64,000 nt of DNA from Minisyncoccota bacterium (GCA_025453495.1 JALOQM010000001.1:90732-154731), one strand, 5' to 3'. Counted from the first letter of the stretch, positions 14,117 through 39,033 are shown. Made by a program: numbers and translations. The notes: generated by a model not told the origin, from the letters alone.

Positions 14117-14515
14117 ATGAAACTTTTTACTTCAAAAAATCAAAAAATAGGTGAGTTAGGAGAGAATATAGCTTGTAGATTTCTTAAAAATAGAGGTTTT
14201 GAAATACTTGAAAGAAACTACACACGAAGATACGGTGAGATTGACATAGTTGCGAAATATAGCAAAATAATTCATTTTGTCGAAGTAAAGACTGTTTCAT
14301 GTGAAATTACTGATGCTACTTTACCTGAGACAGTAATTCGTCCGGAAGAAAACATGCATGAAAGGAAATTACATAGGTTTCAAAATACAGTCCATTCGTA
14401 TCTTGCAAATAATGAAATTAATGATGGGACACCCTGGCAAATAGACCTTGTTTGTGTCTATCTTGATCTTGATAGCAACAAAGCTAGGGTAAATATACTA
14501 GAAAACATATTATAA
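14117..14515 (+). CDS. yraN: YraN-family (UPF0102) predicted endonuclease
   Basis: N-terminal GE(L)GENIACRFL and GEIDIVA motifs typical of the YraN/PD-(D/E)xK family. Confidence 0.7.
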   Translation: MKLFTSKNQKIGELGENIACRFLKNRGFEILERNYTRRYGEIDIVAKYSKIIHFVEVKTVSCEITDATLPETVIRPEENMHERKLHRFQNTVHSYLANNEINDGTPWQIDLVCVYLDLDSNKARVNILENIL

Positions 14516-14647
14516 GTGTTTTTCTTTTTATAAAATTATGCTAGTATGTGAATCGTCTTTGTTTTTTGAAGTACAACCTACAGACAAGAAATAAGTTCAG
14601 AAGCTAGATTTTCAAAATATATTTACAAAAGGCGCAGAGAGTGATAT

Positions 14648-14720
14648 CGGGGTGTGGTGTAACGGCTAACATTCCTGTTTTGGGAACAGGCGACTCAGGG
14701 TTCGAATCCCTGCACCCCGA
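14648..14720 (+). tRNA. tRNA-Gln (anticodon TTG), tentative isotype
   Basis: cggggtg...caccccg acceptor, anticodon stem cctgt/acagg with loop tttggga, T-loop GGTTCGAATCC. Confidence 0.6.
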
Positions 14721-14735
14721 CCCGGTGAGTGTATT

Positions 14736-14806
14736 GCGGGTATGGTTTAGTGGTAGAATGCGTCCTTGCCAAGGACGAGACGGGAGTTCGATTCTCCCTA
14801 CCCGCA
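14736..14806 (+). tRNA. tRNA-Gly (anticodon GCC)
   Basis: Same acceptor as the 13511 Gly tRNA; anticodon stem cgtcc/ggacg with loop ttgccaa. Confidence 0.85.
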
Positions 14807-14812
14807 CAAAAA

Positions 14813-22313: not shown

Positions 22314-23654
22314 TTATTGCACTGCCCAGGACCCATCAACTCCAGGATTTTTCGCCCCACGAACCTCAAAGTGCAAGTGCGCACCAGTTGATCTTCCGGC
22401 ACCAAAGGTACCCGGACGACCACCGGTCGTACCGATATTTTGACCTTGTCTGACAGTATCGCCTGACTCTATAGATACCTTGGAAAGGTGTGCATAGAGC
22501 GTTTGTGTTCCGTTCGGATGTGCAATAACGATGTAATTTCCGTAACCGCCATTGTAGCCACCTGAACCACTCGCGACAACAACGGTACCACCTGCTGCTG
22601 CTCGTATTGTTGTACCGACAGAGCAACCCCAGTCAGTACCATTGTGACCATGAAGCCCTTGTGTTCTTGGACACGCAACTGGCTTTATGTAATAGCCATT
22701 TTGAGCTGGACCACCTGAACCAGGAATTACTCTTCTTGAAACAGATCCTTTTGATTTTGAGGCAGGTGGTGCTGCGGCAATAACCCCATCGGGAATAATA
22801 ATAGTATCGCCCACAATAAGCACCGCATTTGGTGCAATACCATTAAAAACAGCTATATCTCCTGCATCAGCACTGTATTTCTTGGCAAGAGAAGCCAAGG
22901 TATCACCTTTTTTAATAGTGTATTGGACACCTGTTACGGGCAAAATAACCAGGGTACGACCTTCTACGAGTGCCTGCCCTCTGGTGAGATCGTTTGCCCA
23001 AAGAATAGTATTTGTTGAGACAGAAAACATCTCAGCAATTGCCGCAACTGTGTCTCCTTTACGTACGGTATAGACACTGATTTGGTCATTTGTAGAAGTG
23101 TCAGCTACATCTGCTGCTGTGCCAAGTGGACCGCTTTCGGCAACAAGCGCTGATCCATCGACAATTTCTACAGCATCAAGTGTCTTTGCTTGAGGGTCAA
23201 TAATTGGCTTTGCTTCAAGAAGAGTGACTGTTTGTGAGTTTTCTTGATTTTCTACTGTCTCATCAGCTTGTACTGTTCCAGCTGAGAAAATACCAAATGG
23301 ATTCCAAGCATGAGTGTCTTTAGGAAGTGTCAACATGCCAAAGACTAGAAAGACGGAAAGAACCACCAAAAATACTCTGGAGTTCAAAAAAATCGATTTT
23401 TCAGTCCGGCTGCGTGAAAAAGCTTTAAAATAGCCGGATTTTGTATTGTAAGATTTGATAAGCCTAGGAAATACCGCGCAAAATAACCCCTCTTTGTTAT
23501 ACGTACTTAGAGATTTACAGGGCGACCTTTTGGAAAAGTGTCTGTAAAGAAAGTTATATTTAAGCGATTTGTTACAGTCATGCAATCGCTCCGACTCAAA
23601 AATACTCCAGAAATAAGGTGTTTTTTGATATTCGGACAGCTGTTTCAGGAACAT
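22314..23654 (-). CDS. Membrane-anchored LysM-domain M23 (LytM) peptidoglycan endopeptidase; true start probably an internal non-ATG codon just upstream of the TM helix
   Basis: Two LysM-like motifs (YTVRKGDTVAAIA, YTIKKGDTLASLAKKY); M23 motifs HGHNGTDW and HLHFEV; no ATG between the ORF-track start and the TM helix. Confidence 0.8.
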   Translation of the reverse strand: MFLKQLSEYQKTPYFWSIFESERLHDCNKSLKYNFLYRHFSKRSPCKSLSTYNKEGLFCAVFPRLIKSYNTKSGYFKAFSRSRTEKSIFLNSRVFLVVLSVFLVFGMLTLPKDTHAWNPFGIFSAGTVQADETVENQENSQTVTLLEAKPIIDPQAKTLDAVEIVDGSALVAESGPLGTAADVADTSTNDQISVYTVRKGDTVAAIAEMFSVSTNTILWANDLTRGQALVEGRTLVILPVTGVQYTIKKGDTLASLAKKYSADAGDIAVFNGIAPNAVLIVGDTIIIPDGVIAAAPPASKSKGSVSRRVIPGSGGPAQNGYYIKPVACPRTQGLHGHNGTDWGCSVGTTIRAAAGGTVVVASGSGGYNGGYGNYIVIAHPNGTQTLYAHLSKVSIESGDTVRQGQNIGTTGGRPGTFGAGRSTGAHLHFEVRGAKNPGVDGSWAVQ

Positions 23655-23729: not shown

Positions 23730-25688
23730 TTGAGACACACTAACGAAGAATTGACTCGAATGAACAAAAAAGATGAGCTCAATGTAGCGCAAAAAGAAGC
23801 AGTCCTTCACACTGAGGGGCCACTTTTGATTGTTGCCGGAGCCGGAGCTGGTAAAACAAAGACCCTTACTGCCCGAATCGCGAGCTTGATTGCCTCTGGT
23901 ACCCCGGGAGAGAGTATTTTGGCAGTCACATTTACGAATAAAGCAGCAAAAGAGATGAGAGAACGAGTAGCCGCTCTGATCAGTGCTGATCAGAGCGGCA
24001 GTATGCCATTTGTCGGTACGTTCCATTCTCTGGGTGTGCGGCTTATCCGGGACAATTCCGAGAAACTAGGTGTCACCCGGCACTTTACGATCCTCGACGA
24101 GGAAGATGCACGGTCAATCATCAAAGACTCACTTATATCCCGAGGTCTCGACCCCAAGCAATTTGAACCCCGCAAAATAAAGGCGATTATCTCCAGAAAC
24201 AAAAGCGACTTCGTTACTCGCGAGCAGTTTGCCGAAAAAACCTCCTCCTATATTGAAGAAGTGACGCATGCAGTATGGGAAGAATATGAAGCACGAAAAA
24301 AACGGGAGAACAGCCTTGATTTCGACGACCTCCTGCTTCTACCGACACTACTGCTTAAAAGTGATGCCTTTGTAAGAGAACAATATCAGCGTCTCTGGCG
24401 ACATGTTCATGTCGACGAATATCAAGACACGAACAAAGTGCAGTACACACTCGTCACACTGCTCGCTGAGAAACACAAGAATATCTGCGTGGTTGGCGAC
24501 AGCGATCAGAATATCTACAGCTGGCGCGGCGCGAACATCGAAAACATCCTACGCTTTGAACGCGACTACCCGGGGGCGAAAGTAGTGCTCCTTGAAGAAA
24601 ATTACCGTTCCACCAAAACGATCATCGAGGCGGCAAATGAAGTGATCAAAAAAAATGCAGTTCGTATCCCAAAAAATCTCTTCACCAACAACAAAGAGGG
24701 AGAAAAAATTTCACTCTTTGAAGCCTGGAACGAAGAAGATGAGGCGCGTTTTGTCGCACGCACTGCTGACCGTCTGATCCAAGAAGGGGCACAACCAAAT
24801 AACATCACAGTTCTCTATCGCGCCAATTTCCAATCACGCGTACTTGAAGAAGCATTTCTGATGGCAAATGTCCCGTATCAAGTGCTCGGAACGAAATTTT
24901 TCGACCGCAAAGAAATCAAAGATGTCATATCCTATATCAAGGCTGCACTCAACCGCGAAAGCCTTGCTGATGTGAAACGCATCATCAATACCCCAGCGCG
25001 TGGTATTGGTAAAACCACGATTGCAAAACTATTTGCTAATCAATTTGGTGAATTACCAGCTACCATGCAAAAAAAGATCAATGGATTTTATGCAGTACTT
25101 GCAGAAATAAAAGAAGCGGTAGAAACAACGAAACCCTCCGAGGCGATAAAATTCCTCATCAAAAAGACTGGTATCGAGGAAGTACTTGCAACTGGCAGTG
25201 AGGAAGACAAAGAGCGACTTGAAAATATCAAAGAATTGGTAACGCTCGCAACGCGCTATGACCCGCTTGAAGGAATGGAAGGTGTCGAAAAACTACTTGA
25301 AGACGCAGCACTTGCGAGTGAACAAGATTCGCTTGAGGAAAAAAAAGAAAAAATCGGCGTGAAGCTCATGACCGTGCATACATCAAAAGGGTTGGAATTT
25401 CCACATGTGTTTGTCGTTGGTCTTGAACAAGGACTCTTTCCGCACGACCGCATGGATACACAAAAAACAAAAGATGAAGATGAAGAAGAACGCAGGCTTT
25501 TTTATGTCGCACTTACTCGCGCCCGAGAAAAAGTATATCTCTCATGGGCAAACATGCGTACCATATTTGGTATGAAGCAAGTAAACACGCCAAGCGAATT
25601 TCTTTACGATATTCCTGAGCAACTGATTGAAAGAAAAGAACGTGAGCACGAAAATGAATTTGGAGGGAAAGTGATTTATTTAGATTAA
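23730..25688 (+). CDS. uvrD: ATP-dependent DNA helicase, UvrD/PcrA/Rep family
   Basis: AGAGKTKT Walker A, VTFTNKAAKEMRERV motif Ia, DEYQDTN motif II. Confidence 0.9.
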   Translation: MRHTNEELTRMNKKDELNVAQKEAVLHTEGPLLIVAGAGAGKTKTLTARIASLIASGTPGESILAVTFTNKAAKEMRERVAALISADQSGSMPFVGTFHSLGVRLIRDNSEKLGVTRHFTILDEEDARSIIKDSLISRGLDPKQFEPRKIKAIISRNKSDFVTREQFAEKTSSYIEEVTHAVWEEYEARKKRENSLDFDDLLLLPTLLLKSDAFVREQYQRLWRHVHVDEYQDTNKVQYTLVTLLAEKHKNICVVGDSDQNIYSWRGANIENILRFERDYPGAKVVLLEENYRSTKTIIEAANEVIKKNAVRIPKNLFTNNKEGEKISLFEAWNEEDEARFVARTADRLIQEGAQPNNITVLYRANFQSRVLEEAFLMANVPYQVLGTKFFDRKEIKDVISYIKAALNRESLADVKRIINTPARGIGKTTIAKLFANQFGELPATMQKKINGFYAVLAEIKEAVETTKPSEAIKFLIKKTGIEEVLATGSEEDKERLENIKELVTLATRYDPLEGMEGVEKLLEDAALASEQDSLEEKKEKIGVKLMTVHTSKGLEFPHVFVVGLEQGLFPHDRMDTQKTKDEDEEERRLFYVALTRAREKVYLSWANMRTIFGMKQVNTPSEFLYDIPEQLIERKEREHENEFGGKVIYLD

Positions 25689-25742: not shown

Positions 25743-26531
25743 ATGAAGCACATACGACCAAAAAAATCTCTTGGACAGAATTTCCTAAAGTCACACACTG
25801 CGCTCACGCAGATTATCGCTGCTGGAAAATTAAATAAAAAAGATGTCGTGCTTGAAATTGGTCCCGGCAAAGGCGCGCTCACAGAAAAATTACTCGAGCA
25901 CGCGGGTACAGTTATCGCAATAGAAAAAGATACTAATTTGTTTGTCTATCTTTCCGAGAAATTCTCTGACGAGATACAAGAAGGTACGTTCATCTTACTC
26001 AACGATGACATACTTGATTTTTCATTTTCGAACTACAAAATACGAGAGACAAAATACAAACTCATTGCCAACATACCTTACAACATTACCGGTGCAATTC
26101 TTCGAAAATTTCTCTCATTAGAGACGCAACCAGAAAAAATGGTGCTTCTTGTCCAAAAAGAAGTCGCTGAGCGTATCGTCGCTCGTGACAGGAAAGAAAG
26201 CATTCTTTCTATTTCTGTCAAAGCATATGGTACACCGAAATATATTGCCAAAGTACCAGCGCGGTATTTTTCACCGGCACCCAAAGTAGACTCAGCAATC
26301 ATCTCTATTGAAAATATTTCAAAAGCACACTTCGCAAGCATTAAAGAGGAAAGTCACTTTTTTGAACTTCTCCGCGCTGGATTCGCTCACAAACGCAAGC
26401 TTCTTACGAGCAATCTCTCACATCTTGGTATTAATACAAAAACAGTACTCATCGAGTGTAGTATTTCGACACAAGCACGAGCTGAGAATCTGACACTTAA
26501 GCATTGGATTTGCCTCTCAAAGAAGCTATAA
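25743..26531 (+). CDS. rsmA: 16S rRNA (adenine1518/1519-N6)-dimethyltransferase
   Basis: SLGQNFL and EIGPGKGALT SAM-binding motifs. Confidence 0.9.
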   Translation: MKHIRPKKSLGQNFLKSHTALTQIIAAGKLNKKDVVLEIGPGKGALTEKLLEHAGTVIAIEKDTNLFVYLSEKFSDEIQEGTFILLNDDILDFSFSNYKIRETKYKLIANIPYNITGAILRKFLSLETQPEKMVLLVQKEVAERIVARDRKESILSISVKAYGTPKYIAKVPARYFSPAPKVDSAIISIENISKAHFASIKEESHFFELLRAGFAHKRKLLTSNLSHLGINTKTVLIECSISTQARAENLTLKHWICLSKKL

Positions 26532-26538: not shown

Positions 26539-26901
26539 ATGAAGTATTGTATTTTCTTTTTTTCGATTACACTCTTTTCTTTCTTCTTCGCTGCACATAT
26601 CTCGTTTGCCGCACTCGGGACAATGCGCTCATTCGGCGGAAGAGTGATAAGTACGACGACACCAGGTATTACTTGCGGAGCACAATACGGCATGATGAGT
26701 ATTCAGCCTGTCGGAGTATTTCCAGCAACAGGCTATACCATCACTGCAACCACTCAGTCTGTTAATCCTGGAGGTTGGATTTTGGGACTCTACAACGCGA
26801 CACCCACAACTGGTATTTGTTATACCAACACTGCTCCACCAATCCCTGTGCCTTCATTTAACATACTTAAATTTAGCACCTCAAAACCTTCTCTTTTTTA
26901 A
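26539..26901 (+). CDS. Small secreted protein (120 aa), first gene of the T4SS-like operon
   Basis: Signal peptide MKYCIFFFSITLFSFFFAAHISFA; Gly/Thr-rich mature part with two Cys. Confidence 0.45.
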   Translation: MKYCIFFFSITLFSFFFAAHISFAALGTMRSFGGRVISTTTPGITCGAQYGMMSIQPVGVFPATGYTITATTQSVNPGGWILGLYNATPTTGICYTNTAPPIPVPSFNILKFSTSKPSLF

Positions 26902-26912
26902 TTTTTTAAATT

Positions 26913-27854
26913 ATGAAACAAAGCGTAATTGAGAGATATCGAAAATACTTACCAAGCAAGCGATTTATTAGTATCACCATCTCAGTATTTGGAGTGTTGG
27001 CACTTATTCTTCTTGGGAGAGAATTTTTTAGTGGAAGAAAAAAAATAAGCGGCGATACCGAAAATACTTCTGCTTCTAATGGCACACTGATCTCAATCAG
27101 CGAACTTGCCGAGAACGACCGCGACAAAGATGGCGTCGCAGATTGGGAGGAAGCGCTCTGGGGCACCGATCCTAACAATACTGATAGCGATGGTAATGGA
27201 ATAAGTGACAAAGTTGAGATTGATGGAAAAAAAAATACTCTTACTCTTTCTTCTGCAGAACAATCAACCGAGGCACTTGATGAAACAGAAGCTTTTTCTC
27301 GTGAATTGTTTATTTCAATTAGTGCACTAAAAGAATCAGGTAATCTCAATGAACAATCAATACGCGACCTTGCGGAAACTATCAGCCAAAACGCAGGTGA
27401 AAAAGAATTCATTACGCCAGTCTATACAAAGGACTCAATACAAACAACAAATGAGGCAAAGGTAGCTGTCACAAACTATCATTCTGCCCTGCTTACCGTT
27501 TTGAAGCGCTATGACGAGAGCGGTATTGGCACTGAGCTCTCAAGTATAGAGGCTGCGCTATCTACAGAAGACCAATCTACTATTACAGATATTGAAAATA
27601 TCGCCAAAAAATACCAATCGCTTGCAAAAGACCTTATAGGCATAACAGTACCTTCTGCGATAGTAGACACCCATCTAGAGCTTGCAAACAGTGCATCTGG
27701 TATTAGTGTCTCACTTACAAACACTGCAAAACTGTTTGACAACGCCATGCTCGGTTTGATTGGTATCTCACAATACGAGAAACAAAGCTCTGTATTTGAC
27801 ACTACATTCTCAAAACTACAAGAGTATTTTAAATCGCATGGTATACTCAAATAA
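26913..27854 (+). CDS. N-terminally membrane-anchored protein with Asp-rich calcium-binding-like repeats and a helical C-terminal region
   Basis: TM helix ISITISVFGVLALILLG; DKDGVADWEEALWGTDPNNTDSDGNGISD (thrombospondin-type-3/dockerin-like DxDxDG). Confidence 0.5.
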   Translation: MKQSVIERYRKYLPSKRFISITISVFGVLALILLGREFFSGRKKISGDTENTSASNGTLISISELAENDRDKDGVADWEEALWGTDPNNTDSDGNGISDKVEIDGKKNTLTLSSAEQSTEALDETEAFSRELFISISALKESGNLNEQSIRDLAETISQNAGEKEFITPVYTKDSIQTTNEAKVAVTNYHSALLTVLKRYDESGIGTELSSIEAALSTEDQSTITDIENIAKKYQSLAKDLIGITVPSAIVDTHLELANSASGISVSLTNTAKLFDNAMLGLIGISQYEKQSSVFDTTFSKLQEYFKSHGILK

Positions 27855-30530
27855 ATGAAATCTGCCACTCGACCAACACGGATACTTGCCGGCATGTTGC
27901 TCGGAACGATAGCTTTGCAGTCGGCTTTTCTTGCACCACCCACAAAAAGTGCTGAAGCGCTCGACTTTACTGCCGCATCACAAGGAGTTCTTTCTGCTAG
28001 TGTCAGTTGTGGTGTAAACAATCTATTGCAAAGAAACCTTTCGAGTAAACTAGGTGGCCTTATTGAAGGTGAGGCGCTAAGTGAAGTGAGTGGTGCAGCT
28101 AGTGTACAAGTAGGCGACAGAGAAGTAAGAAGGCAACAAGAAGCTTTAACATTTAAAGAAACATGTCTAAAAAAAATTGCTCGCGCTGCTTCACAGGTTG
28201 TCTTGAGAGAGATAACGAGACAGACGGTCAACTGGATTAATACTGGCTTCAATGGTCAGCCACTTTTTGTAAGAAATCCACAATCATTCTTTAAGAGTCT
28301 TGCTGATAGAGAAGTACAGCGTTTAACGTCGACATTTAGAAATAGAAATAACTATCCGTTTGGACAATCGTTTATCAGAGGCTACGTGCGTGCAACACAA
28401 AGAACATTTGAACAAAATAGCGTTTATAGTCTTCGAAATTCTCTTGGCGGCTATACACCACAGCAATTTTATAGTGATTTCAATCTCGGTGGTTGGGATG
28501 GGTGGCTTGCAATGACACAACAGCCACAGAATAATCCTATTGGCTTCAGTATAGAAGCATCACGAGAACTCAGTCGTCGTCTTGCAGGTACACAACAATC
28601 AGTGGCACAAGACATACGAGATGAGCTACAGCAAGGAATGGGATTTCTCTCACCAAAAGTCTGTGTCGACCCAGTCGGCTATATTCCACCATCTGGGGCA
28701 GTGATCAGTATTACTGAAGTCGAAAATCTCGCATTAAATGATCCTATTAGTCTCATAAATCAAATGGGTATAACACCAGAGCAGGCAGCAGCAGCAATCG
28801 GTGTTAGTGTAGCTGATCTCCAAGATCTCAATGAAGAACAAATTGCAAGTCTTATAGGTGCCGCACAAACAGCTGGCTATGACCAATATGTTGATCAGTG
28901 TCGCCGCTATGAAACTACAACTCCAGGAGGTGTAGTTTCAAGTCAACTGACCAAAGTTCTTAATATACCAACAGACAATCTCTTACTTGCACCAGAAGAT
29001 CTCGACAGCAGTCTACAAGCAGTCTTTGATGCACTACTCAACCAGCTTTTCAAAAAAGGTCTTGCTTCACTTTCTGATCTTTCAAATGGTGACACTGGTG
29101 GAACTGGAGCAAGTAATATCGAAGTATATAGCGGTGGCGGGTATGGTTCAAATGCAAGTGCGACGCAAAATTTCTCGGCAACTACAAATGTGAATGATCA
29201 ATGGTTCAATCAAAACCGGCAGTTTGACATTACTAATATTGCTTCAATCCAAGAAATTATTGATACTCAAAATGAGTATATACAAGCAATCATTGATGAT
29301 CCAGCAATTGAATCCCCACTACCAAACCCAACAATAAATTCAGCGAACTACCCTCTTCCTGCAGTGCTCTATACAAGCGCAAAAGGTCAAAATTACTGGC
29401 TGAATAGAATAATCCCTGAAATCTATCAACTTGACTACTGTATACCTGGACCACACCCAGGCTGGGAAAATGAAGCACAAGCAAACTTCTTTGCTATAAA
29501 ATCTAAAATTACTGATACAAAAAATCTTAACGAAACAGCGCTTGGCAGGATATACGATACATTTACCTTTGGTTTAGGAACATCAGTTATTAATTTTTGG
29601 ACAAATGTAGCTACACCGGGTGACGTAAATGCTGATGATCTTAAACATATAAGATACTATGGCGCGCTTATACAGAATCTCACAGGCATACAGGCAGAAG
29701 CTGACAAATACATTCTCTCATACGAAAAAGTGATAAAAATTCTTGATACGCTCTTTGAGCGGTTCGTTGTACAAATGAATAGACAGTTTGATCCAGTCAA
29801 TCTCCCCTCATCCGCAGGTGAAGCAGCACTCCTTTATGCCAAAATTCCTGGATATACATCAATTCTTCAGAAAAATACCCAAGACATTGTATCGCTTAGG
29901 GGTGTTGTACGTAGACTTGAAGAAATCAAACAAGAAATAACACTCATCAACACAGAACAAGCGACACTTGATTCGCAGACGCTCTCTGGTGCTATAAGTC
30001 AATCACAAGCTGAAATTATACAAAATCAACTTGACAACAGGCTTGATTTTGCAAAGCGCTCATTTGGTAATCAAGCACAAAATTTTGTCACAGATGCTAA
30101 TACCTTAGCAATAAAAGATCAAACACGGCAGTTAATTAGTGACATTGTGTATATACACAACACCTTACTCAAAGGTCCAAGCGGGTGTGAAGCACAAATA
30201 CAGTTTGTACCAGTCGAATCTCGAGTACGTGCATGGCCGTACCAGAATCCTCATTATTATGATTATCCAAAAGGTGGAAGTGGTACTACACTAGTTGATA
30301 TTGGTAGTCTTAAACTAGACCCAATCACTAACAACCTTATCGGTGCTCCACTACGAAGCTATACGACCTATTATCCATTTATGGAATACTCTTATTTCGG
30401 TAATTCAAACTGGAGTGGCTATCGACCAACCTGGAGTCAGATTTATATTACAGATCTCATGAATTTTGACACCGGTGAAGTAGGTAACACTGTCGGTATA
30501 TTTGAAGCACGACTTATGTTTGGAGAATAG
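27855..30530 (+). CDS. Large secreted protein (891 aa) of unknown function, translationally coupled to the upstream gene (TAA-ATG)
   Basis: Signal peptide MKSATRPTRILAGMLLGTIALQSAFLA; no recognisable catalytic motifs. Confidence 0.55.
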   Translation: MKSATRPTRILAGMLLGTIALQSAFLAPPTKSAEALDFTAASQGVLSASVSCGVNNLLQRNLSSKLGGLIEGEALSEVSGAASVQVGDREVRRQQEALTFKETCLKKIARAASQVVLREITRQTVNWINTGFNGQPLFVRNPQSFFKSLADREVQRLTSTFRNRNNYPFGQSFIRGYVRATQRTFEQNSVYSLRNSLGGYTPQQFYSDFNLGGWDGWLAMTQQPQNNPIGFSIEASRELSRRLAGTQQSVAQDIRDELQQGMGFLSPKVCVDPVGYIPPSGAVISITEVENLALNDPISLINQMGITPEQAAAAIGVSVADLQDLNEEQIASLIGAAQTAGYDQYVDQCRRYETTTPGGVVSSQLTKVLNIPTDNLLLAPEDLDSSLQAVFDALLNQLFKKGLASLSDLSNGDTGGTGASNIEVYSGGGYGSNASATQNFSATTNVNDQWFNQNRQFDITNIASIQEIIDTQNEYIQAIIDDPAIESPLPNPTINSANYPLPAVLYTSAKGQNYWLNRIIPEIYQLDYCIPGPHPGWENEAQANFFAIKSKITDTKNLNETALGRIYDTFTFGLGTSVINFWTNVATPGDVNADDLKHIRYYGALIQNLTGIQAEADKYILSYEKVIKILDTLFERFVVQMNRQFDPVNLPSSAGEAALLYAKIPGYTSILQKNTQDIVSLRGVVRRLEEIKQEITLINTEQATLDSQTLSGAISQSQAEIIQNQLDNRLDFAKRSFGNQAQNFVTDANTLAIKDQTRQLISDIVYIHNTLLKGPSGCEAQIQFVPVESRVRAWPYQNPHYYDYPKGGSGTTLVDIGSLKLDPITNNLIGAPLRSYTTYYPFMEYSYFGNSNWSGYRPTWSQIYITDLMNFDTGEVGNTVGIFEARLMFGE

Positions 30531-30596: not shown

Positions 30597-33500
30597 ATGA
30601 ATCGTTTAAAACGAAAAATAAAATCTGGCTTTAAACACTTTGTGCTCACGCTAGTGCTTCTTGGCGTGACTTTTGCATCACTATTCTCTAGTCCGCTACA
30701 AGTACACGCAGCAGACAGTATGCAAGAGGTATTTCCAGCTACCTCTTCCAGTGATTCAGGAGTAGGCGATATTCTACCAATTGGTACTGTACCCTATAGC
30801 GGCAGGGATGGTGATGAATATATCATTAATGAAAATAATCTGAGTTTGACTCTTGAAGGTACACCAACTTCTCAGACAGTCACATTCAAAATGAATCTCC
30901 GCCTTGGTGGTGATTCTATACAGGGTATAAATCCAGGTAGAAATGGCAATAACACTCTTTACGACGAGGAAGAAGACCTTGGTAGTTGGCAATCAATTTA
31001 CGACACCAACAGTGATGGTAGTTGGCCACCTACTAGCGATAGTGGCAGAGGAATATGGCTTGATATTGGCACAAGTGTAGCTCCTGGACAAGCAAGTGTA
31101 GGATTTGGCTCACCTCCAATTGCACCTGTTATAAACGATCTTGTGCAAGAGTATGACCTCGCGACTCTCATTAACTTCAGGTACACATCGCAAGAAATTA
31201 ATATCACTGTAGGCACAGCAGCTGGACTTACCCCAAATACACAATACTACGCTCGCATTCGTGTTGAAGAATCAGATTCAACAGACAATGCCTACAGTAA
31301 GATTGTCGGATTCAAAACAGGTGCTGCTGGTGATACCGGAGAACAAAGCGAGGAAATCACAGCAAGCCTGACGCAATCTGAAATAAACAATGAAGGACAA
31401 CTTATTGATCTTCTTGACTGCGGTATAAGCACTATATTTACTGATTGTTTGGTTATAGGTTTCTATTACCTTTTTTATGTCCCATCATCATGGATTCTCC
31501 GTGCTGCTGGTTGGTTGCTTGACGCATTCGTTACATTTTCAATCAGTACCAAAGTATATAGTGATCCAAGTTTTATAACAGAAGGATGGAAGATCGTCCG
31601 TGATATAGCAAACATATTTTTCATTTTTGTCCTTGTATATATTGCATTTAAGCTAATACTTGGCGTTAGTGGCTCTGATGTGAAACGTATGCTGACCACT
31701 ATTATCATAGTCGGTGTCCTTATAAACTTCAGTCTATTTTTTACCAAAGTCGTTATCGACTCATCAAATATACTGGCACGCATTTTTTATCAACAGATCC
31801 AAATCACTGGTACTGAAGGTAGGGCAATCACAGATGCCTCAAAACTAGGTGTGGAAGAAAAAAGTCTCTCACAAGCTATTGTCAGTGGTGTAAGTGTAAA
31901 CAAAATGCTCTCTGATGAGACTATTACAAAACTACGTACTATGAATTGGCATAGTACTAGTTCAACATTTTTGATTATTATACTTGGCTTAATTGTCAAT
32001 CTCGTTACTGCTTGGACATTATTTATGAGTGCACTGTTTTTTATAGGGAGGATTGTCGCCTTGTGGGTAGCTATGATATTTTCAGCATTCGCCTTTATGT
32101 CAAACATTGCACCTGATTGGTTTAAACAAATTCCTATGATTAATTGGAGTAGTTGGTTCTCTGACCTTTTAAAGGTTTCCTTTTTAGCGCCGATCTTTCT
32201 GTTCTTTATTTATTTGATTATTGCATTTGTGAATAGCAAATTTCTCGATGGGTTACTGCTTAAAGCAAACGATTTTGATTTTACACAACTCCTCGTCTCT
32301 ATTATGCTCCAGTTTGGAATTTTAATTGTCCTTATACAAAAAGCAAAAGATATTGCTGAAAAACTTGCAGGAGACACAGCTGGTGCCGCTGTAAGTGCTA
32401 TAAAAAAAGGAGCTTCCGCTGTTGGTTCAGTAGTTGCTGGAGCAGGACTTGCTGTAGCAACTGCTGGAGCAGGATTTGCACTTCGTGGCACACTTGGCAG
32501 ATATGCCGCAGATCAGATGAATTCTGAAGAATACAAAAAGAAAATGGCCGAACGCATAGAAAAAGGTGGTGTTCGTGGTTGGCTTGCACAACGAGAACTC
32601 AAATCATATGAAAGTTTCAGTAATGCAAGTTTTGATGCTCGTGGATCAAAAAGATTTCAGAGTGCTCTCACTAGGTTTGGTGGTGCAACTGGTATAAATA
32701 TAAACACTGGAACTGGACACGAGGGAGGACATCTAAGTGATAAAGAAAAGAAAGAAAAAGAGCATCTTGCTATGGTAGAGCTCCTGCGATCAAAGAAAAG
32801 CGATGAGGAGTGGATGGAGTCACTCAGCGAGGATGATCCAGAAAAGAAAAAGTACATGGATGCAAAAAAGAAATACGAGACTGAGAAAGCTGTGTTTGAT
32901 GAGTATGAAAACAAATACAGAGAAGCATACGAGGCTGCAAAAAACTTGCCTGGCTTTAATCTTGACAAATTTAGAATTGACTATGAAAAAGCAAATGGAA
33001 AAGCACCAGATGCGCCAAAGGAAGTCAAAGCATCAGACTATGTTGATGTTTCAAAAATAAACAAAGAGCGCGAACTTAAATATGCAAGATACCTTAGAGA
33101 GAATACATTGCGCGCAAAGATAGAGCGTGCAACAGGTGATGGAGATCTGCTTGGCACGGAGCGTAGCGCACAATTGTCAGCAGCCAAAAAGATCGAAAGA
33201 GAAGCAGCAATGACTGAGAAATCATCAGTAAGTATGTCGAAACTTGCTCGCGCCGCAGAACAAGCAGAATACGATATTGGTCGCCTCAATAGAGAAATTG
33301 AAGCACATCAAACTAAATACTCTGGTACGCCTGAAGAAGTAAAACAAAAAATTACTCTTGAGATAAATACGGCAAAGAATGAACTGAAAGATATTGATCT
33401 AAATGCTGAAATGATGAAACAAAAATATGAAAGTGTAAAAAAGAAAGGTGGAAATACTGCGAGACAAGCTTATATTGCATGGCAAGCTGCTGAAGACAAG

Positions 33501-33632
33501 AGAAAAGAGAAACAAGAAGAAATCGCGGCTCTTGGTAGGGTAACAGAAGATCAGAAAAAACGTATAAGCGAACTTGAAAAGAAAGAAGGAGATCTTGAAA
33601 AGCTCCGAGAAAAGATAGACAAACTTAACTAG
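30597..33632 (+). CDS. VirB6/TrbL-like polytopic inner-membrane protein (1011 aa) with an N-terminal secreted domain and a K/E-rich coiled-coil C-terminal tail of about 450 aa
   Basis: Signal peptide; about 270-aa exodomain; at least 7 TM helices (e.g. IFFIFVLVYIAFKLILGV, TIIIVGVLINFSLFF, FLAPIFLFFIYLIIAF); Gly-zipper AGAGLAVATAGAGFA; C-terminal heptad-like KKKYE/EKKEGDLEK repeats. Confidence 0.55.
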   Translation: MNRLKRKIKSGFKHFVLTLVLLGVTFASLFSSPLQVHAADSMQEVFPATSSSDSGVGDILPIGTVPYSGRDGDEYIINENNLSLTLEGTPTSQTVTFKMNLRLGGDSIQGINPGRNGNNTLYDEEEDLGSWQSIYDTNSDGSWPPTSDSGRGIWLDIGTSVAPGQASVGFGSPPIAPVINDLVQEYDLATLINFRYTSQEINITVGTAAGLTPNTQYYARIRVEESDSTDNAYSKIVGFKTGAAGDTGEQSEEITASLTQSEINNEGQLIDLLDCGISTIFTDCLVIGFYYLFYVPSSWILRAAGWLLDAFVTFSISTKVYSDPSFITEGWKIVRDIANIFFIFVLVYIAFKLILGVSGSDVKRMLTTIIIVGVLINFSLFFTKVVIDSSNILARIFYQQIQITGTEGRAITDASKLGVEEKSLSQAIVSGVSVNKMLSDETITKLRTMNWHSTSSTFLIIILGLIVNLVTAWTLFMSALFFIGRIVALWVAMIFSAFAFMSNIAPDWFKQIPMINWSSWFSDLLKVSFLAPIFLFFIYLIIAFVNSKFLDGLLLKANDFDFTQLLVSIMLQFGILIVLIQKAKDIAEKLAGDTAGAAVSAIKKGASAVGSVVAGAGLAVATAGAGFALRGTLGRYAADQMNSEEYKKKMAERIEKGGVRGWLAQRELKSYESFSNASFDARGSKRFQSALTRFGGATGININTGTGHEGGHLSDKEKKEKEHLAMVELLRSKKSDEEWMESLSEDDPEKKKYMDAKKKYETEKAVFDEYENKYREAYEAAKNLPGFNLDKFRIDYEKANGKAPDAPKEVKASDYVDVSKINKERELKYARYLRENTLRAKIERATGDGDLLGTERSAQLSAAKKIEREAAMTEKSSVSMSKLARAAEQAEYDIGRLNREIEAHQTKYSGTPEEVKQKITLEINTAKNELKDIDLNAEMMKQKYESVKKKGGNTARQAYIAWQAAEDKRKEKQEEIAALGRVTEDQKKRISELEKKEGDLEKLREKIDKLN

Positions 33633-33649: not shown

Positions 33650-34339
33650 ATGATAGATTTTACTGAACAACAAATGGAAGAAAAATTCAATGCGGTCCCG
33701 CGCTCGGTGCGCGCGTTGATCTTTGATCCTATAGTTGGAGAAAAAACACAAAGTATCGGCAAGAAGTATGGATTACTGCTTGATGCATCAAGTGACTTGC
33801 TTGCAATTGTGCAATTTGCTCTTTTTGGATTCATTACTCAAGAAGATATCAAAAAAGAAATTATCGAAGCACTCAAAGTAAGTAATACTGTAGCATCTGC
33901 CATTACTGTAGATATAAAAAACGAAATAGTAGCGCCTATTTTTGAAAAAATGCGCAAGCAACAAGAAGAAACTACTACAGAAAAAATAACTGACGAAGAA
34001 ATTGCACTCCTTCTTACTGAACCTGAAGATGACAGTAGTGGTTTTGCGCAAGCTGGTATTGAAATACAATCAGAGAAACCTTTCATTGGCGACGAGGAAA
34101 AGGAAGCCTTTGAGGAGCATAAGGTATTGCTCAAGCAAATAGAACGTACTACCTCGCCAATACAAACGTCAAACGAGATACAGCGAGGTATTACAGGTGA
34201 AAAATTTTCTGGTAATTTCAAAATTCCTCATGAAGAGCGAGATTATTCGATAAATAAGCAGTCTGACGCAGATACAGTTTCACTCAAAGTAATAAGGCAT
34301 CGTGACCGTGTCGATCCATACCGAGAACCTCTTGAATAA
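33650..34339 (+). CDS. Acidic cytoplasmic hypothetical protein (229 aa)
   Basis: Intact ORF in operon; hairpin aaaatgcccgtagtttgcgggcatttt immediately downstream. Confidence 0.45.
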   Translation: MIDFTEQQMEEKFNAVPRSVRALIFDPIVGEKTQSIGKKYGLLLDASSDLLAIVQFALFGFITQEDIKKEIIEALKVSNTVASAITVDIKNEIVAPIFEKMRKQQEETTTEKITDEEIALLLTEPEDDSSGFAQAGIEIQSEKPFIGDEEKEAFEEHKVLLKQIERTTSPIQTSNEIQRGITGEKFSGNFKIPHEERDYSINKQSDADTVSLKVIRHRDRVDPYREPLE

Positions 34340-34404
34340 CAAAATGCCCGTAGTTTGCGGGCATTTTGCTTTGCCGGCAGTGGAAGATACCATATAATGA
34401 ATAT

Positions 34405-34842
34405 ATGCGATTTGAAGTGCCGCAATTCATTGACGTCGAAGACAAGATTTTCGGCCCATTCACTTTTAAGCAATTTTTATATCTTGCCGGAGGAGCGGGT
34501 ATCATCTATGTCCTTTGGAAACTTCTCCCAGCGATCATCGCCATACCACTCATACTTCCTGTCGCTGGACTCGCACTTGCTCTGACATTTTACAAAGTAA
34601 ATGGTCGACCATTCGCACAAACTATTGAGTCTTGGATGAAATACATCACTCAGGACAAACTCTATCTTTGGAAAAAAAGAGAGCGCAGAAAGACGCCAGA
34701 AAAAACACCAATGCCTGAGACAGAACAAGTACCAATTCAAGCACCACGTCTTTCTGGGAGTAAACTCAAAGACATCGCATGGAGTCTTGATGTTCTTGAT
34801 ATGCAAGAGAACGCAAAGCTCGATAAACTCGACACAAGATAA
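34405..34842 (+). CDS. PrgI-family-like small membrane protein of Gram-positive-type T4SS (functional VirB3 analogue)
   Basis: MRFEVPQFIDVEDKIFGPFTFKQFLYLAGGAGIIYV then a second TM helix; classic PrgI-family N-terminus and two-TM topology directly upstream of VirB4; start moved to ATG 34405 because the upstream in-frame Met lies inside the preceding hairpin. Confidence 0.6.
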   Translation: MRFEVPQFIDVEDKIFGPFTFKQFLYLAGGAGIIYVLWKLLPAIIAIPLILPVAGLALALTFYKVNGRPFAQTIESWMKYITQDKLYLWKKRERRKTPEKTPMPETEQVPIQAPRLSGSKLKDIAWSLDVLDMQENAKLDKLDTR

Positions 34843-34849: not shown

Positions 34850-35488
34850 ATGGCTATCAACGCAAAAGCATCACAAGAATTTGTACCTGTTAAAGAAGTG
34901 CGCGACGGTATCGTCGTCTTAAAAGATGGCAGCCTTCGTGCTATTTTGCTTGCTTCATCAATCAATTTGTCACTCAAGTCATATGAAGAACAACAGGCAG
35001 TTCTTTTACAATTTCAGAACTTTCTCAATTCAATAGATTTCTCAATGCAGATCGTCGTCCAATCTCGCCGACGTGACATGCGTCCATATCTTACACTACT
35101 TGAAAACAGAATGCGTGAACAAACTGAACCACTCTTGAAAGTGCAGACGCGCGAGTATATTGAATTCATCAAAAGCTTCACGGAGTCAGTGAGTATTATG
35201 ACAAAAAACTTTTTTATCATCGTTCCGTATTCATCAGTATCATTGCCTTCAGCTGAGGGTGTTATAAAAAAACTATTTGGTGGCACAAATAAAAAAACAG
35301 TAGCTCAAGAAGAATTAGCAAGCTTTGAAGAAAAACGTACACAACTTGAGCAAAGAGTTGGCACTATCACACAGGGACTTTCCCGTATGGGTGTCAGAAC
35401 AGCACAGCTTGGTACTGAGGAGGTTATAGAACTTTTCTATAAGATATTTAATCCGGGAGAAATAACTGCAAGTATTAAATCACAATAA
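34850..35488 (+). CDS. virB4: VirB4/ConE/PrgJ N-terminal domain encoded as a separate ORF (first part of a split VirB4)
   Basis: EFVPVKEVRDGIVVLKDGSLRAILLASSINLSLKSYEEQQAVLLQF matches the conserved Gram-positive VirB4 N-terminus; TAA stop 1 nt before the ATG of the ATPase ORF. Confidence 0.6.
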   Translation: MAINAKASQEFVPVKEVRDGIVVLKDGSLRAILLASSINLSLKSYEEQQAVLLQFQNFLNSIDFSMQIVVQSRRRDMRPYLTLLENRMREQTEPLLKVQTREYIEFIKSFTESVSIMTKNFFIIVPYSSVSLPSAEGVIKKLFGGTNKKTVAQEELASFEEKRTQLEQRVGTITQGLSRMGVRTAQLGTEEVIELFYKIFNPGEITASIKSQ

Positions 35489-35489: not shown

Positions 35490-37538
35490 ATGGGCTTTTT
35501 TGATACATTGTTTGGGAATAAGTCAAAAGTAAAAGAAGCGGAAAAAACGCCAGTGCTTTCTGTCTTACCTGAACAAATCTATGAATCAGCAACCCTCGAA
35601 TTCCAAGACATCATCGCACCATCTGCTCTTAAAATAGAGTCGAAATCTCTAAATCTTGGCGAGAAAATAACACGCACGTTTTTTGTTATTTCCTATCCAA
35701 GATTCCTGACCGATAATTGGTTCTCACCGATAATAAACCTCGACAAGATTTTTGATGTATCAATCTTTATTCATCCTATAGATTCACAGAAATTGCTTCG
35801 CGATTTCCAGAAAAAAGTCGCAGAAGTTCAAAGTCAGATCAACACCAGAGAAGCAAAAGGACTTGTCAGAGATCCAATGCTTGATACTGCTTACCGTGAT
35901 CTTGAGGCGCTTAGAGACAATCTCCAACAGGCGCAAGAACGGGTCTTTGAGGTTGGACTGTATATCACAGTATATGCTGACAATGAAAATGAGCTTTTCA
36001 AAGTTGAAAATGAGATAAAAACTATCCTTGAATCACGCCTTATTTATCTAAAACCAGCACTCTTTCAGCAAGAAGAAGGATTTAAGAGTGTTTTACCGAT
36101 CGGTAATGATCTTCTCTCAGTACACCAAAAACTCAATACTGAGCCGCTTTCGTCTATTTTTCCATTTGTGTCCTTCGACCTCACAAGTGACAATGGGATC
36201 CTTTATGGCGTAAATCGACACAATGCGTCACTTGTTATCTTTGATCGTTTCTCCCTTGAAAACTATAATTCAATTATCTTTGCAAAGTCCGGAGCTGGAA
36301 AGTCGTATGCGACGAAGCTTGAGATTATCCGTACACTTATGTTTGATACTGACGTGATCGTTATCGACCCAGAACGTGAGTATGAGTATCTTGCTGAAGC
36401 AGTCGGTGGACGCTATTTCAATATAGCGCTTTCTTCTGATCACCACATCAACCCATTTGATCTACCAATTCCACGTGAAGATGAAACGACAGCTGACGTG
36501 CTTCGCTCAAACACAATCAATCTTGTCGGCTTGTTTCGTATCATGCTCGGCGGACTAACACCAGAAGAGGACGCGCTCATAGACAGAGCGATTACAGAAA
36601 CATATGCAATAAAAGATATTACTGCTGATTCAGATCTCAGTGACATAGAACCACCACTGTTGTCTGATTTTGAGCTTGTTCTTGCTGGTATGGAAGGAAG
36701 CGAAAAAGTACTCCAACGTCTGACAAAATATACTAAAGGATCTTGGTCAACCTTTATAAACCGCCCATCAAACGTCGACATCAACAAGAAATTTGTCGTC
36801 TTCTCTGTGCGCGACATGGAAGATGAGTTGAAGCCTGTCGCTATGTATATTGTCACGCACTTCATCTGGAACGAAGTGCGTAAATCAATAAAAAAGCGCC
36901 TACTTGTCGTCGACGAAGCATGGTGGATGATGAAATCAGAAGACACCGCTTCATTTCTCTACTCAATCGCAAAAAGAGGGCGTAAATACTATCTTGGCCT
37001 CTGTACTATCACCCAAGACGTTGGAGACTTCATGAGAAGTCCCTATGGTGTGCCTATTGTAACAAACTCTTCATTGCAGCTTCTCCTTAAACAATCACCG
37101 TCATCGATTGATCTTCTACAGAAGACATTTAATCTCACCGATGAAGAAAAATATCTTCTTCTTGAATCTGCCGTTGGTGAGGGCATCTTCTTTGCAGGAC
37201 TCAAGCATGTTGCCATAAAGATCATTGCCTCATACACCGAAGATCAAATTATTACCTCAGATCCATCACAAGTACTTGCTATAAAACGCGCTAAGGAAGA
37301 ATTTGAAGCATCTGAAACGCAAAGAGAACAAGCTATTGTTTCAGAGACAGAAATAGTAAGAGCGCAACCATTTGAAACAACAATAGCACCTAAAACAATA
37401 CCTGAGACAGAAGAAACAATAGACGCAGCTGAAATGACACCTGTCCGACAAAAAACAAAGGAAGAGTCACAACTTGATGAGCTTGCCATCCTTGATGAAG
37501 ACCTCAAAGAAATCGAAGAGGATATTGTCGGAAAATAA
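35490..37538 (+). CDS. virB4: VirB4/TrsE/CagE-family T4SS ATPase (central and ATPase domains)
   Basis: Walker A IIFAKSGAGKSYATK; HINPFD motif; Walker B LLVVDEAWWMM; RKYYLGLCTITQDVGDF motif. Confidence 0.85.
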   Translation: MGFFDTLFGNKSKVKEAEKTPVLSVLPEQIYESATLEFQDIIAPSALKIESKSLNLGEKITRTFFVISYPRFLTDNWFSPIINLDKIFDVSIFIHPIDSQKLLRDFQKKVAEVQSQINTREAKGLVRDPMLDTAYRDLEALRDNLQQAQERVFEVGLYITVYADNENELFKVENEIKTILESRLIYLKPALFQQEEGFKSVLPIGNDLLSVHQKLNTEPLSSIFPFVSFDLTSDNGILYGVNRHNASLVIFDRFSLENYNSIIFAKSGAGKSYATKLEIIRTLMFDTDVIVIDPEREYEYLAEAVGGRYFNIALSSDHHINPFDLPIPREDETTADVLRSNTINLVGLFRIMLGGLTPEEDALIDRAITETYAIKDITADSDLSDIEPPLLSDFELVLAGMEGSEKVLQRLTKYTKGSWSTFINRPSNVDINKKFVVFSVRDMEDELKPVAMYIVTHFIWNEVRKSIKKRLLVVDEAWWMMKSEDTASFLYSIAKRGRKYYLGLCTITQDVGDFMRSPYGVPIVTNSSLQLLLKQSPSSIDLLQKTFNLTDEEKYLLLESAVGEGIFFAGLKHVAIKIIASYTEDQIITSDPSQVLAIKRAKEEFEASETQREQAIVSETEIVRAQPFETTIAPKTIPETEETIDAAEMTPVRQKTKEESQLDELAILDEDLKEIEEDIVGK

Positions 37539-38022: not shown

Positions 38023-39033
38023 ATGCATCGTATCGGCAAAATCATACTCCTTGGCACACTCTTGATGGGCGTACTTTTGTTTTCCCCAGTTACTATAGAT
38101 GCACAATTTACTGGAAATACTGACATCACAGTAAATGTTAGTCCTACTATTCCAGGTCCAAATGAAGAAGTAGTGGTGACTCTCACTAGTCTTTCAGTAA
38201 ATCTTGATACAATTACTATTAGGTGGGAAATAAATGGAAAAACAGAACTTAGTGGTGTTGGAGAGAAAACGTTGACATTCAAAACTGGTGGAGTCGGATC
38301 AACAACGACAATTGAAGCTTCAATTGATGTTCCAGGTGTGCCGACCATAACCAAGCGTATAGTTATCCAACCACTAGCAATCGACCTGCTTTGGGAAGCA
38401 ACTGACTCGTATACACCTCCGTTTTACAAAGGAAAAGCACTGCTTCCGTCTGAAGGAGTAGTAAAGGTAGTTGCCATACCTGAGATTAAAACAACTAGCG
38501 GAAAGATGCTAAAACCATCTGATTTTACTTATACATGGAATCGCAATCAAAGGGAACAAGCCATTAACTCAGGAAATGGAAGAAATTATTTTTCTTTCCA
38601 GCAGAATTACCTGACAAATGAAGAAGTTATAACAGTAACAGCAAAATCAGTTTCTGGTAACTATCAAGCAACAAAGAAAGTAACAATTACACCTCGTGCC
38701 TCAAAAGTGTTATTCTATGAATTTGATCCAGCGCTTGGAGTCAGATATGAACGCATGCTTCAAGATATTACTGGTGTACAGGTAAATAAAGAAGGACTAA
38801 TTATTACCGCTGAGCCGTATTATTTTTCAGCAAATACTGCTGATACAGCACAGCTTTCATTTGAATGGAATGTGAACAATGAGGAAATTACGTCGCCAAC
38901 AAAAAAACATATGTTACCAGTACAAGTAACCACAAACGGCGTAGCAGAAATTCGAGTTAAGACAGAAGCTAGGATGAAATTATTCCAGGAGGCAACACGG
39001 TCGCTGTTCGTTAATCTTGAAGCAAATGAGTAA
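38023..39033 (+). CDS. Secreted beta-rich (Ig-like repeat) protein, 336 aa
   Basis: Signal/anchor MHRIGKIILLGTLLMGVLLFSPVTIDA; repeated VTxTxK beta-strand patterns. Confidence 0.5.
   Translation: MHRIGKIILLGTLLMGVLLFSPVTIDAQFTGNTDITVNVSPTIPGPNEEVVVTLTSLSVNLDTITIRWEINGKTELSGVGEKTLTFKTGGVGSTTTIEASIDVPGVPTITKRIVIQPLAIDLLWEATDSYTPPFYKGKALLPSEGVVKVVAIPEIKTTSGKMLKPSDFTYTWNRNQREQAINSGNGRNYFSFQQNYLTNEEVITVTAKSVSGNYQATKKVTITPRASKVLFYEFDPALGVRYERMLQDITGVQVNKEGLIITAEPYYFSANTADTAQLSFEWNVNNEEITSPTKKHMLPVQVTTNGVAEIRVKTEARMKLFQEATRSLFVNLEANE

Follow-up and report, generated by a model that had tools for sequence, protein, structure and literature searches.

Type IV secretion systems (T4SSs) related to MPF_FATA have been described in Patescibacteria (PMC12102498, PMC10633639), and in Saccharibacteria such a system is essential to epibiotic growth (Wang et al. 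2023, PMC10633639). A survey of the Patescibacterial systems reported no adhesin homologues and VirB8 in very few Patescibacteria, and suggested that a different protein may do the job (Quinonero-Coronel et al. 2025, PMC12102498). The Patescibacterial T4SS is thought to export proteins, not DNA. Three genes that we call orfA, orfB and orfC lie beside such a system in a stretch of 64,000 nucleotides (nt) from an ultra-small Minisyncoccota bacterium (GCA_025453495.1, JALOQM010000001.1:90732-154731). This whole stretch is referred to below as the window; identical database proteins identified its source as a Candidatus Pacebacteria metagenome-assembled genome. The T4SS itself was already known. 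The three proteins fall, by sequence, outside the known T4SS families, and neither of the two papers names or discusses them. We give a probability of about 0.5 to the reading in which OrfB and OrfC serve the T4SS as extracytoplasmic subunits of a lineage-specific (Paceibacteria-type) kind. They would form a module with the VirB6-like protein and p229 encoded downstream, and OrfC would take a VirB5-like slot and OrfB a VirB8-like one, with OrfA as an accessory. What appears to be new is a core of two putatively exported proteins, OrfB and OrfC, tied to a VirB6-like gene, the division of OrfC into a conserved N-terminal and a variable C-terminal part, and a probable link of OrfA to peptidoglycan binding.

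orfB and orfC at the T4SS locus

The window carries a genuine T4SS cluster, of the published chromosomal, origin-proximal, monoderm-type Patescibacterial kind. VirB4 was found with an adjoining PrgI/VirB3 gene and a TrsD-like gene, the combination by which membership of the MPF_FATA-like T4SSs of Patescibacteria is recognized. Besides these three, the window shares with the described systems (PMC12102498, PMC10633639) a putative VirB6-like protein, a putative VirB2-like pilin domain and a wall hydrolase. Beyond the PG_binding_1 gene lie jag-yidC-rnpA (minus strand) and then dnaA (43898) and dnaN (45492). This origin-proximal chromosomal setting, with dnaA, dnaN, rnpA and ksgA nearby, fits the published description. 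An earlier note, made from this DNA alone, had proposed a T4SS-like context, and the PrgI/VirB3, TrsD-like, VirB4 and T4SS_pilin-NlpC/P60 genes downstream agree with it. The protein encoded after orfC has a signal peptide, an ectodomain of ~250 aa, about 7 to 8 transmembrane (TM) segments and a cytoplasmic coiled-coil tail, and its orthologues gave only weak matches to TrbL_4 (6.5e-5) and TrbL/VirB6 (0.045). We classified it as VirB6-like because of this topology and these matches.

Gene order in relatives was determined by six-frame annotation with hidden Markov models (HMMs). Three independent anchors were used, which together gave about 90 related loci: orfC in 67 species genomes (among them Nomura-, Zambryski- and Campbellbacteria, Paceibacterota and Minisyncoccia), TrsD in 80 metagenome contigs, where 22 loci had enough upstream DNA, and a distant orfB in two loci. 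The common order was uvrD, rsmA, a variable gap, orfB, orfC, the VirB6-like gene, p229, PrgI, TrsD, VirB4, p336, the pilin-NlpC/P60 gene and the gene for a PG-binding protein. In the 67 orfC-anchored genome loci, orfB and orfC stood side by side, with the VirB6-like gene directly after them. The 22 TrsD-anchored loci included 19 with orfB and 18 with orfC. The remaining four, which gave no direct orfC match, were accounted for by a cut at the flank limit, an apparent frameshift, a cut at the contig end and a divergent protein of 1225 aa in the orfC slot, whose resemblance to the OrfC motifs was weak (hhalign E = 5.5e-4). Both loci anchored on the distant orfB had the same gene order. Absence of the three genes from the T4SS loci of relatives, which the earlier note had set as evidence against a part in secretion, was not what we observed for orfB and orfC, since these occur in essentially every related locus; orfA was found in about a third.

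The spacing of the genes was also examined. The three open reading frames (ORFs) were confirmed as real genes, each with a family of homologues, and their coordinates and lengths (120, 313 and 891 aa) are exactly those given before, including the TAAATG junction at which the orfB stop codon (27852-27854) touches the orfC ATG with a gap of 0. The orfA stop codon is 11 nt from the orfB ATG, and 66 nt lie between orfC and the VirB6-like gene in the window. In relatives, the orfB-orfC and orfC-VirB6L junctions are often 4-nt overlaps (-4 nt), and rsmA abuts or overlaps orfB in many of them (gap of -72 to +10 nt). The three genes had been said to head the operon. This was not confirmed: the rsmA stop codon lies only 7 nt upstream of the orfA ATG on the same strand, and neither a sigma-70-like promoter nor a terminator-like site was found between them in a scan, which gave no enrichment. 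rsmA and orfA are probably in one transcription unit.

About ten relatives have, between orfC and the VirB6-like gene, an extra gene for a protein of 400-1,300 aa with a signal peptide and FN3-like or CARDB domains. Examples, with loci designated by L numbers, are L006 (12673-16557), L008 (12604-15540), L037 (12469-13776) and L079 (194-2611).

Features of the three proteins

Hydropathy analysis revealed a single hydrophobic segment at the N terminus of each protein and none elsewhere (residues 1-26 in OrfA, 17-35 in OrfB and 10-28 in OrfC). From this we infer that all three are extracytoplasmic, and the terms secreted and anchored, under which they had been introduced, are borne out at the level of the sequence. 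None of the three gave an above-threshold sequence match in Pfam, NCBIfam, PHROG or PDB; the PDB searches, with single sequences as well as profiles, returned coiled-coil noise. The absence of a recognizable catalytic motif, noted before, therefore holds for these databases. The proteins had also been called the least characterized part of the system. Indeed, the products are annotated as hypothetical proteins, their families have no curated model, and the survey (PMC12102498) does not mention them.

OrfC was found to consist of a conserved N-terminal domain followed by a variable loop and a variable C terminus, as judged from its alignment. The JGI gene call (database entry P0001) has 871 aa and begins 20 codons downstream of our start. 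The alignment of homologues backs the ATG at 27855, since M1 does not vary and the n- and h-regions can be aligned. At the predicted signal peptide cleavage site, position -1 was Ala in all 48 diverse members, and position -3 was A, V, T, S, G or I in all 48. Apart from A35 at this site, every invariant residue falls within residues 121-402. The N-terminal domain (residues ~97-410), which carries the motifs WINTGF.G.P.FV.NP, YPFG, GGW.GW, PQNNP.GF, LQQG.GFLS.K.C and C...ETTTPG, was the sole part that aligned in distant loci. Mature OrfC has six cysteines (C52, C104, C270, C349, C529 and C778); two of them, C270 and C349, are invariant, as is C104 within the group of closer relatives. Across 90 members, the length between the two invariant cysteines varied from 16 to 167 aa, whereas the distance from WIN.GF to the first of them was fixed at 139-155 aa. 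Beyond the second invariant cysteine, the tail measured 87 to 1841 aa in the family. The predicted secondary structure of the N-terminal domain is mostly helical, and its AlphaFold2 model had a predicted local distance difference test (pLDDT) score below 50. The C-terminal domain, which is common to closer relatives only, was modeled as long helices with a pLDDT mostly of 80-95.

A word-index search found 34 OrfC homologues, Patescibacterial where named, the closest with 62-64% protein identity. At E <= 1e-3 the OrfC profile matched 5,388 cluster representatives (50% identity), a number that fell to 2,241 at E <= 1e-30. The 48 diverse members contained no Pfam or NCBIfam domain, save isolated C-terminal matches of the TIG, SprB, GH5 or anchor type. 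Of 139 representatives, 116 had no hydrophobic segment beyond the N terminus, and no fusion of OrfC to VirB6-like TM segments (a Rosetta-stone fusion) was present among the 139. No relatives were found on mobile elements, either by tblastn of the N-terminal domain against plasmids and phages or by a pattern scan of viral contigs.

OrfB is a bitopic protein without Cys, in which a basic N-terminal tail of 16 residues with a conserved KYLPSK+F motif precedes a TM helix (residues 17-35). In 71 of 91 family members, Lys and Arg were more numerous ahead of the TM helix than behind it, so that, by the positive-inside rule, an N-in/C-out orientation is favored. The Ca-binding-like DxDxDG repeats described earlier in OrfB were recovered as DRDKDG (residue 69) and DSDGNG (residue 91), and they are conserved in the family. 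By sequence these motifs appear to be thrombospondin type 3 (TSP3) Ca-binding loops, a type of repeat that is typically extracellular. D69, D77, W78 and E80 were invariant in 92 sequences. In OrfB itself the TSP3_bac score was 13.5 bits, below the Pfam cut-off of 25, and the match to the TSP3 region of CglD was likewise below threshold. Orthologues scored above the TSP3_bac threshold, at 27.5-43 bits (43 bits in L070), and have precomputed PF18884 matches. The loops were modeled with a pLDDT of 84-96. The 123 homologues listed for OrfB include some named "thrombospondin type 3 repeat-containing protein."

OrfA has a Sec-type signal peptide (residues 1-24) that starts with MK, continues with a hydrophobic core and ends in ISFA, with A as the next residue. 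The mature part is a small domain with FGG (residues 32-34), two cysteines (46 and 94) and LGLY. No lipobox, as would be expected of a VirB7-like lipoprotein, was found in the first 45 residues. The word-index search returned one relative only, and the family was recovered through positional homologues, which share a pattern of signal peptide, FGG[RK], Cys, LG.Y, Cys and GTS. It was present in 26 of 71 sources, always as one copy in the gap between rsmA and orfB, on either strand. Judged by sequence, OrfA is an accessory, non-universal small disulfide protein of the locus. In several loci orfA lies beside a PG_binding_1 gene, and L152, the most divergent locus, encodes a PG_binding_1 protein (7864-8910, minus strand) whose C terminus is an OrfA domain (E = 6.9e-15). 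Because of this fusion and these neighbors, we link OrfA to peptidoglycan; it would act with peptidoglycan-binding proteins at the cell wall as an accessory Sec-exported, disulfide-bonded domain.

Candidate roles of OrfB and OrfC

The reading of OrfB and OrfC as extracellular T4SS subunits is favored because of their constant presence and fixed position, their coupling to the VirB6-like gene, the Sec export of OrfC, its putatively rigid disulfide-containing N-terminal domain with a variable loop and tail, and the hot spot of adhesin-type genes next to orfC. A possible order of events is as follows. OrfB would insert into the membrane with its KYLPSK tail in the cytoplasm and present, on the outer side, a four-helix bundle and the pair of Ca2+-binding TSP3 loops. 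OrfC would be exported by Sec and cleaved at the invariant AxA site. These two steps are read from the sequences. Its Cys-stapled N-terminal domain might then dock on the extracellular face of a platform formed by the VirB6-like protein and OrfB, and the inter-Cys loop and the helical or adhesive C-terminal extension might project through the thin wall to the host cell or to a VirB2-like pilus. OrfC would thus occupy the VirB5 slot by elimination and gene order, and OrfB the slot of a VirB8-like bitopic scaffold; neither is homologous to the protein whose place it would take.

Several observations weigh against such a role. The link to the T4SS is drawn wholly from gene neighborhood, in a lineage of frozen gene order, and uvrD and rsmA, which are not T4SS parts, are equally constant neighbors. 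In L152, the block orfB-orfC-VirB6L-p229 (8940-14805) stands beside rsmA and is followed by rpsL-rpsG-fusA-tuf, and neither PrgI, TrsD nor VirB4 was found within 10 kb. That the block is intact there shows that orfB-orfC-VirB6L-p229 is a separable module. In the Campbellbacteria locus L070 (7691-12670), two tandem TSP3 copies of orfB, a divergent orfC whose product is Cys-rich and lacks the GGW and PQNNP motifs, and a short p229-like gene are followed by rpsL-rpsG, with neither a VirB6-like gene nor VirB4 in the 8 kb downstream. As this locus shows, orfB and orfC can persist where no channel gene adjoins them. A 781-aa protein of L070 was considered as an OrfC-VirB6 fusion and rejected, as it has no TM segments. 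The profiles of OrfA, OrfB and OrfC were also compared by hhalign and hmmsearch (for OrfB by hmmsearch --max) with the full set of R388 VirB-type proteins and, from pCF10, with PrgA-PrgM and PcfA; all scores were below 5 bits and all hhalign probabilities below 1%. In particular, the OrfC and OrfB profiles scored 1.0 and -0.7 bits against R388 TrwJ (hmmsearch), the hhalign probability of OrfC with PrgK was 0.1%, and the lytic transglycosylase of R388 was likewise unmatched. In the experimentally studied Saccharibacterial cluster (SEML1_0006-0019), the genes form a different set, and by annotation none was recognized as the counterpart of orfB or orfC. At 375-1230 aa, OrfC greatly exceeds VirB5 (~220 aa) in size, and its conserved N-terminal domain is the part that is poorly modeled. 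Because of this low pLDDT, the fold searches, which revealed no similarity of OrfC or OrfB to VirB5, adhesins or toxins, say little on the N-terminal domain.

OrfB and OrfC, and OrfA with them, could instead be general envelope proteins of Paceibacteria, serving the wall, a surface layer or cell division, whose adjacency to the T4SS reflects a frozen origin-proximal gene order. The order uvrD-rsmA-orfB-orfC is as invariant as orfC-VirB6L, rsmA and orfB overlap in several loci, L070 keeps orfB, orfC and the p229-like gene by rsmA in the absence of VirB6L and VirB4, and L152 keeps its block without VirB4 nearby. The tie of OrfA to PG-binding proteins and the conserved LysM/M23 gene close by would also suit this view. 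However, in more than 85 loci the genes are sandwiched in the T4SS block, with codons that overlap or abut the VirB6-like gene, and even L152 retains orfB and orfC together with a VirB6-like gene, which gives a TrbL_4 match. Moreover, no match to a known envelope-biogenesis family was obtained, and the variable C terminus and the extra adhesin-type genes suit an outward-facing organelle better than a housekeeping function. We regard this explanation as unlikely. If it were true, orfB and orfC would still represent a large unannotated envelope protein family within the CPR (Candidate Phyla Radiation).

It is less probable still that the N-terminal domain of OrfC is a new enzyme, a VirB1-like helper making way for the T4SS or pilus through the cell's own wall or the host envelope. 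The domain has (near-)invariant polar residues (N129, E153, N226, N227, T356 and D392) and is predicted to be mostly helical, as are lysozyme-like folds; one family member carries a GH5 cellulase domain, and wall-active proteins (NlpC/P60, PG_binding_1 and LysM/M23) are abundant at the locus. Yet OrfC showed no similarity to the SLT, CHAP or LytM domains of PrgK, to the lytic transglycosylase of R388 or to any Pfam or NCBIfam hydrolase, no PDB fold matched, and a pilin-fused NlpC/P60 hydrolase is already encoded at the locus.

The least likely view, that the proteins are effectors or toxins delivered to the host, with OrfC a polymorphic toxin made of a trafficking N-terminal domain and a toxic C terminus, has in its favor the conserved N-terminal domain with a highly variable C terminus (87-1841 aa after the second invariant Cys), which recalls polymorphic toxins, the supposed export of protein rather than DNA and the lack, among the window's large ORFs, of a relaxase or coupling protein, but is opposed by a Sec signal with an invariant cleavage site, because of which OrfC would leave a monoderm cell independently of the T4SS, by the single copy and fixed position of orfC in every locus, by the absence of a toxin domain in the 48 diverse members, by a C-terminal domain that here is a long helical bundle without a toxin match, and by a next gene that always encodes a VirB6-like or FN3/CARDB-type surface protein, with no small immunity-like gene recognized in the gene-order tables, in which no specific search was made. 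The earlier note had put the three proteins forward as adhesins, tip proteins or effectors. Their extracytoplasmic location is supported by sequence, the effector role is disfavored by the Sec-type signals and by the invariant N-terminal domain and fixed position of OrfC, and neither the fold search that the note had proposed, run for OrfB and OrfC, nor the profile searches found a VirB5-like, adhesin or toxin similarity.

Returning to the proposal of extracellular T4SS subunits, a more specific version, which we put forward tentatively and hold to be doubtful, is that OrfC is a host-contact element of a new fold. Its N-terminal domain would cap the VirB6-like channel or nucleate the VirB2-like pilus, as a VirB5 analogue of independent origin, and its hypervariable loop and C terminus would govern to which host, be it a bacterium or an archaeon, the symbiont attaches and from which it takes material. 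OrfB would be a Ca2+-dependent membrane socket, and the module as a whole a self-contained "outer" block of the T4SS, which would differ from every T4SS characterized in structure.

The cluster and its proteins compared with known systems

The features of the window are listed in Table 1. VirB4 is split in the window into a TrsD/TraC-like N-domain gene and an ATPase gene with 1 nt between them, as is reported to be typical of Patescibacteria (Quinonero-Coronel et al. 2025, PMC12102498). In the related locus L028 (15570-19370), the VirB4 ORF is about 1,267 aa long and, ahead of the P-loop domain, is interrupted by an intein that carries a LAGLIDADG homing endonuclease (Intein_splicing, 1.7e-19; LAGLIDADG_3, 3.6e-21). 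A similar VirB4 intein in L040 (9503-13306) is suggested by the ORF length alone; both loci are of the Zambryskibacteria/Parcubacteria type. In the complete 619-kb genome of Candidatus Nomurabacteria CP060230.1 (L002/L003, 17297-18378), the PrgI and TrsD-like genes are inverted to the minus strand and the cluster is otherwise colinear. The N-terminal ectodomain of the VirB6-like protein of the window gave weak FN3-type matches. Downstream, a VirB2-like T4SS_pilin domain with two TM helices (23.8 bits; cut-off, 26.6) is joined to an NlpC/P60 peptidase, and the gene shares 17 nt with the preceding 336-aa gene; p336, this fusion and the PG_binding_1 protein would be exported partners. The LysM/M23 gene diverges from uvrD, and its position is kept in relatives; its product may be a wall hydrolase that the published survey counted as VirB1-like with extra domains. 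No relaxase or VirD4 was found among the 10 other large ORFs scanned in the window, a scan confined to large ORFs.

Table 1. Positions of orfA, orfB, orfC, their predicted parts and other genes in the window
Feature	Position	Strand	Remarks
orfA	26539-26901	+	120 aa
orfB	26913-27854	+	313 aa
orfB, TSP3-type Ca-binding loops	27096-27212	+	Residues 62-100; DRDKDG at 69, DSDGNG at 91
orfB, predicted extracellular helical domain	27282-27836	+	Residues 124-308; four-helix-bundle-like
orfC	27855-30530	+	891 aa
orfC, signal peptide	27855-27959	+	Residues 1-35, predicted cleavage between AEA and L; hydrophobic segment 10-28
orfC, conserved N-terminal domain	28143-29084	+	Residues ~97-410
orfC, variable inter-Cys loop	28665-28898	+	Residues 271-348; gappy alignment
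orfC, lineage-specific C-terminal helical domain	29190-30224	+	Residues 446-790
uvrD/pcrA	23730-25688	+	
rsmA/ksgA	25743-26531	+	ORF; RrnaAD Pfam match at the orthologous position in L001-L003
VirB6-like polytopic membrane protein	30597-33632	+	1011 aa; hydropathy, synteny, weak orthologue matches
p229, acidic soluble protein	33650-34339	+	229 aa; fourth member of the orfB-orfC-VirB6L-p229 module
PrgI/VirB3-like	34366-34842	+	Pfam PrgI, 2.2e-11
TrsD/TraC-like (VirB4 N-domain)	34850-35488	+	212 aa; NCBIfam TrsD, 1.1e-8; VirB4 N-terminal matches
VirB4 ATPase	35490-37538	+	682 aa; Pfam P-loop_TraG, 8.1e-25
Coiled-coil protein	Between VirB4 and p336		141 aa; listed in the downstream gene order
p336, exported protein	38023-39033	+	336 aa
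T4SS_pilin-NlpC/P60 fusion	39017-40135	+	
PG_binding_1 protein	40145-41716	+	
LysM x2 + Peptidase_M23 gene	22314-23654	-	
ComEC competence channel gene	5050-6549	-	Elsewhere in the window
PilB/T2SSE-type ATPase gene	53711-55408	-	Elsewhere in the window
Four tRNA genes	13358-14807	-/+	Arg-TCG (minus); Gly-TCC, Pro-TGG, Gly-GCC (plus)

Several assignments to known families were considered and rejected. OrfC does not belong to the VirB5, VirB1/PrgK or PrgB family, as no profile similarity was found, nor to the VirB1-like wall hydrolases such as PrgK, TraG and CwlT, given that no SLT, lysozyme, CHAP, NlpC/P60 or LytM domain occurs in the 48 members. OrfB was rejected as a member of VirB8/PrgL, its fold being helical and not NTF2-like, and no sequence similarity to TrwG or PrgL was detected.

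The surface proteins PrgB/Asc10, PrgA and PrgC of pCF10 resemble the proteins described here in their association with a monoderm T4SS and, putatively, in surface location. They differ in sequence and in architecture, with Ig-like and polymer-adhesin domains where OrfB and OrfC are helical, and OrfA, OrfB and OrfC have no LPXTG sorting signal, as expected of PrgB, PrgC or TraO, near the C terminus and no C-terminal hydrophobic segment; a loose IPPSG occurs at residue 277 of OrfC. Bacterial TSP3 proteins such as CglD of Myxococcus share with OrfB two Ca-binding loops of the D-x-D-x-D-G type with invariant Asp. In contrast to CglD, OrfB has two repeats only, set on an anchor and a helical bundle, and the match is limited to residues 67-108.

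VirB8, PrgL, TraM and TcpC are the proteins that OrfB most resembles in layout: a short cytoplasmic N-terminal tail, one TM helix and an extracytoplasmic domain, encoded in the T4SS block, here of a system where VirB8 otherwise went undetected. Their domain has an NTF2-like alpha+beta fold, whereas that of OrfB is predicted to be a four-helix bundle after the TSP3 loops. VirB5, known also as TraC or TrwJ, is a Sec-exported helical protein of the stalk or pilus tip in Gram-negative T4SSs. OrfC is likewise predicted to be Sec-exported, soluble and largely alpha-helical, and its gene stands immediately upstream of a VirB6-type gene, just as virB5 (trwJ) precedes virB6 in R388. As in systems with VirB5, a putative VirB2-like pilin is present in the window that would need a tip or a nucleator. 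No T4SS other than the Patescibacterial one has been shown to be essential to its owner's growth, which takes place on a host cell. OrfB and OrfC, two large phylum-restricted families, are candidates for its missing extracellular parts and for determinants of host range in Paceibacteria, the largest class, and they are clear targets for Pfam curation and structure determination. Rather than a demonstrated new mechanism, they offer a testable lead on how this T4SS contacts the host, at the places that VirB5 and VirB8 hold in the known systems.

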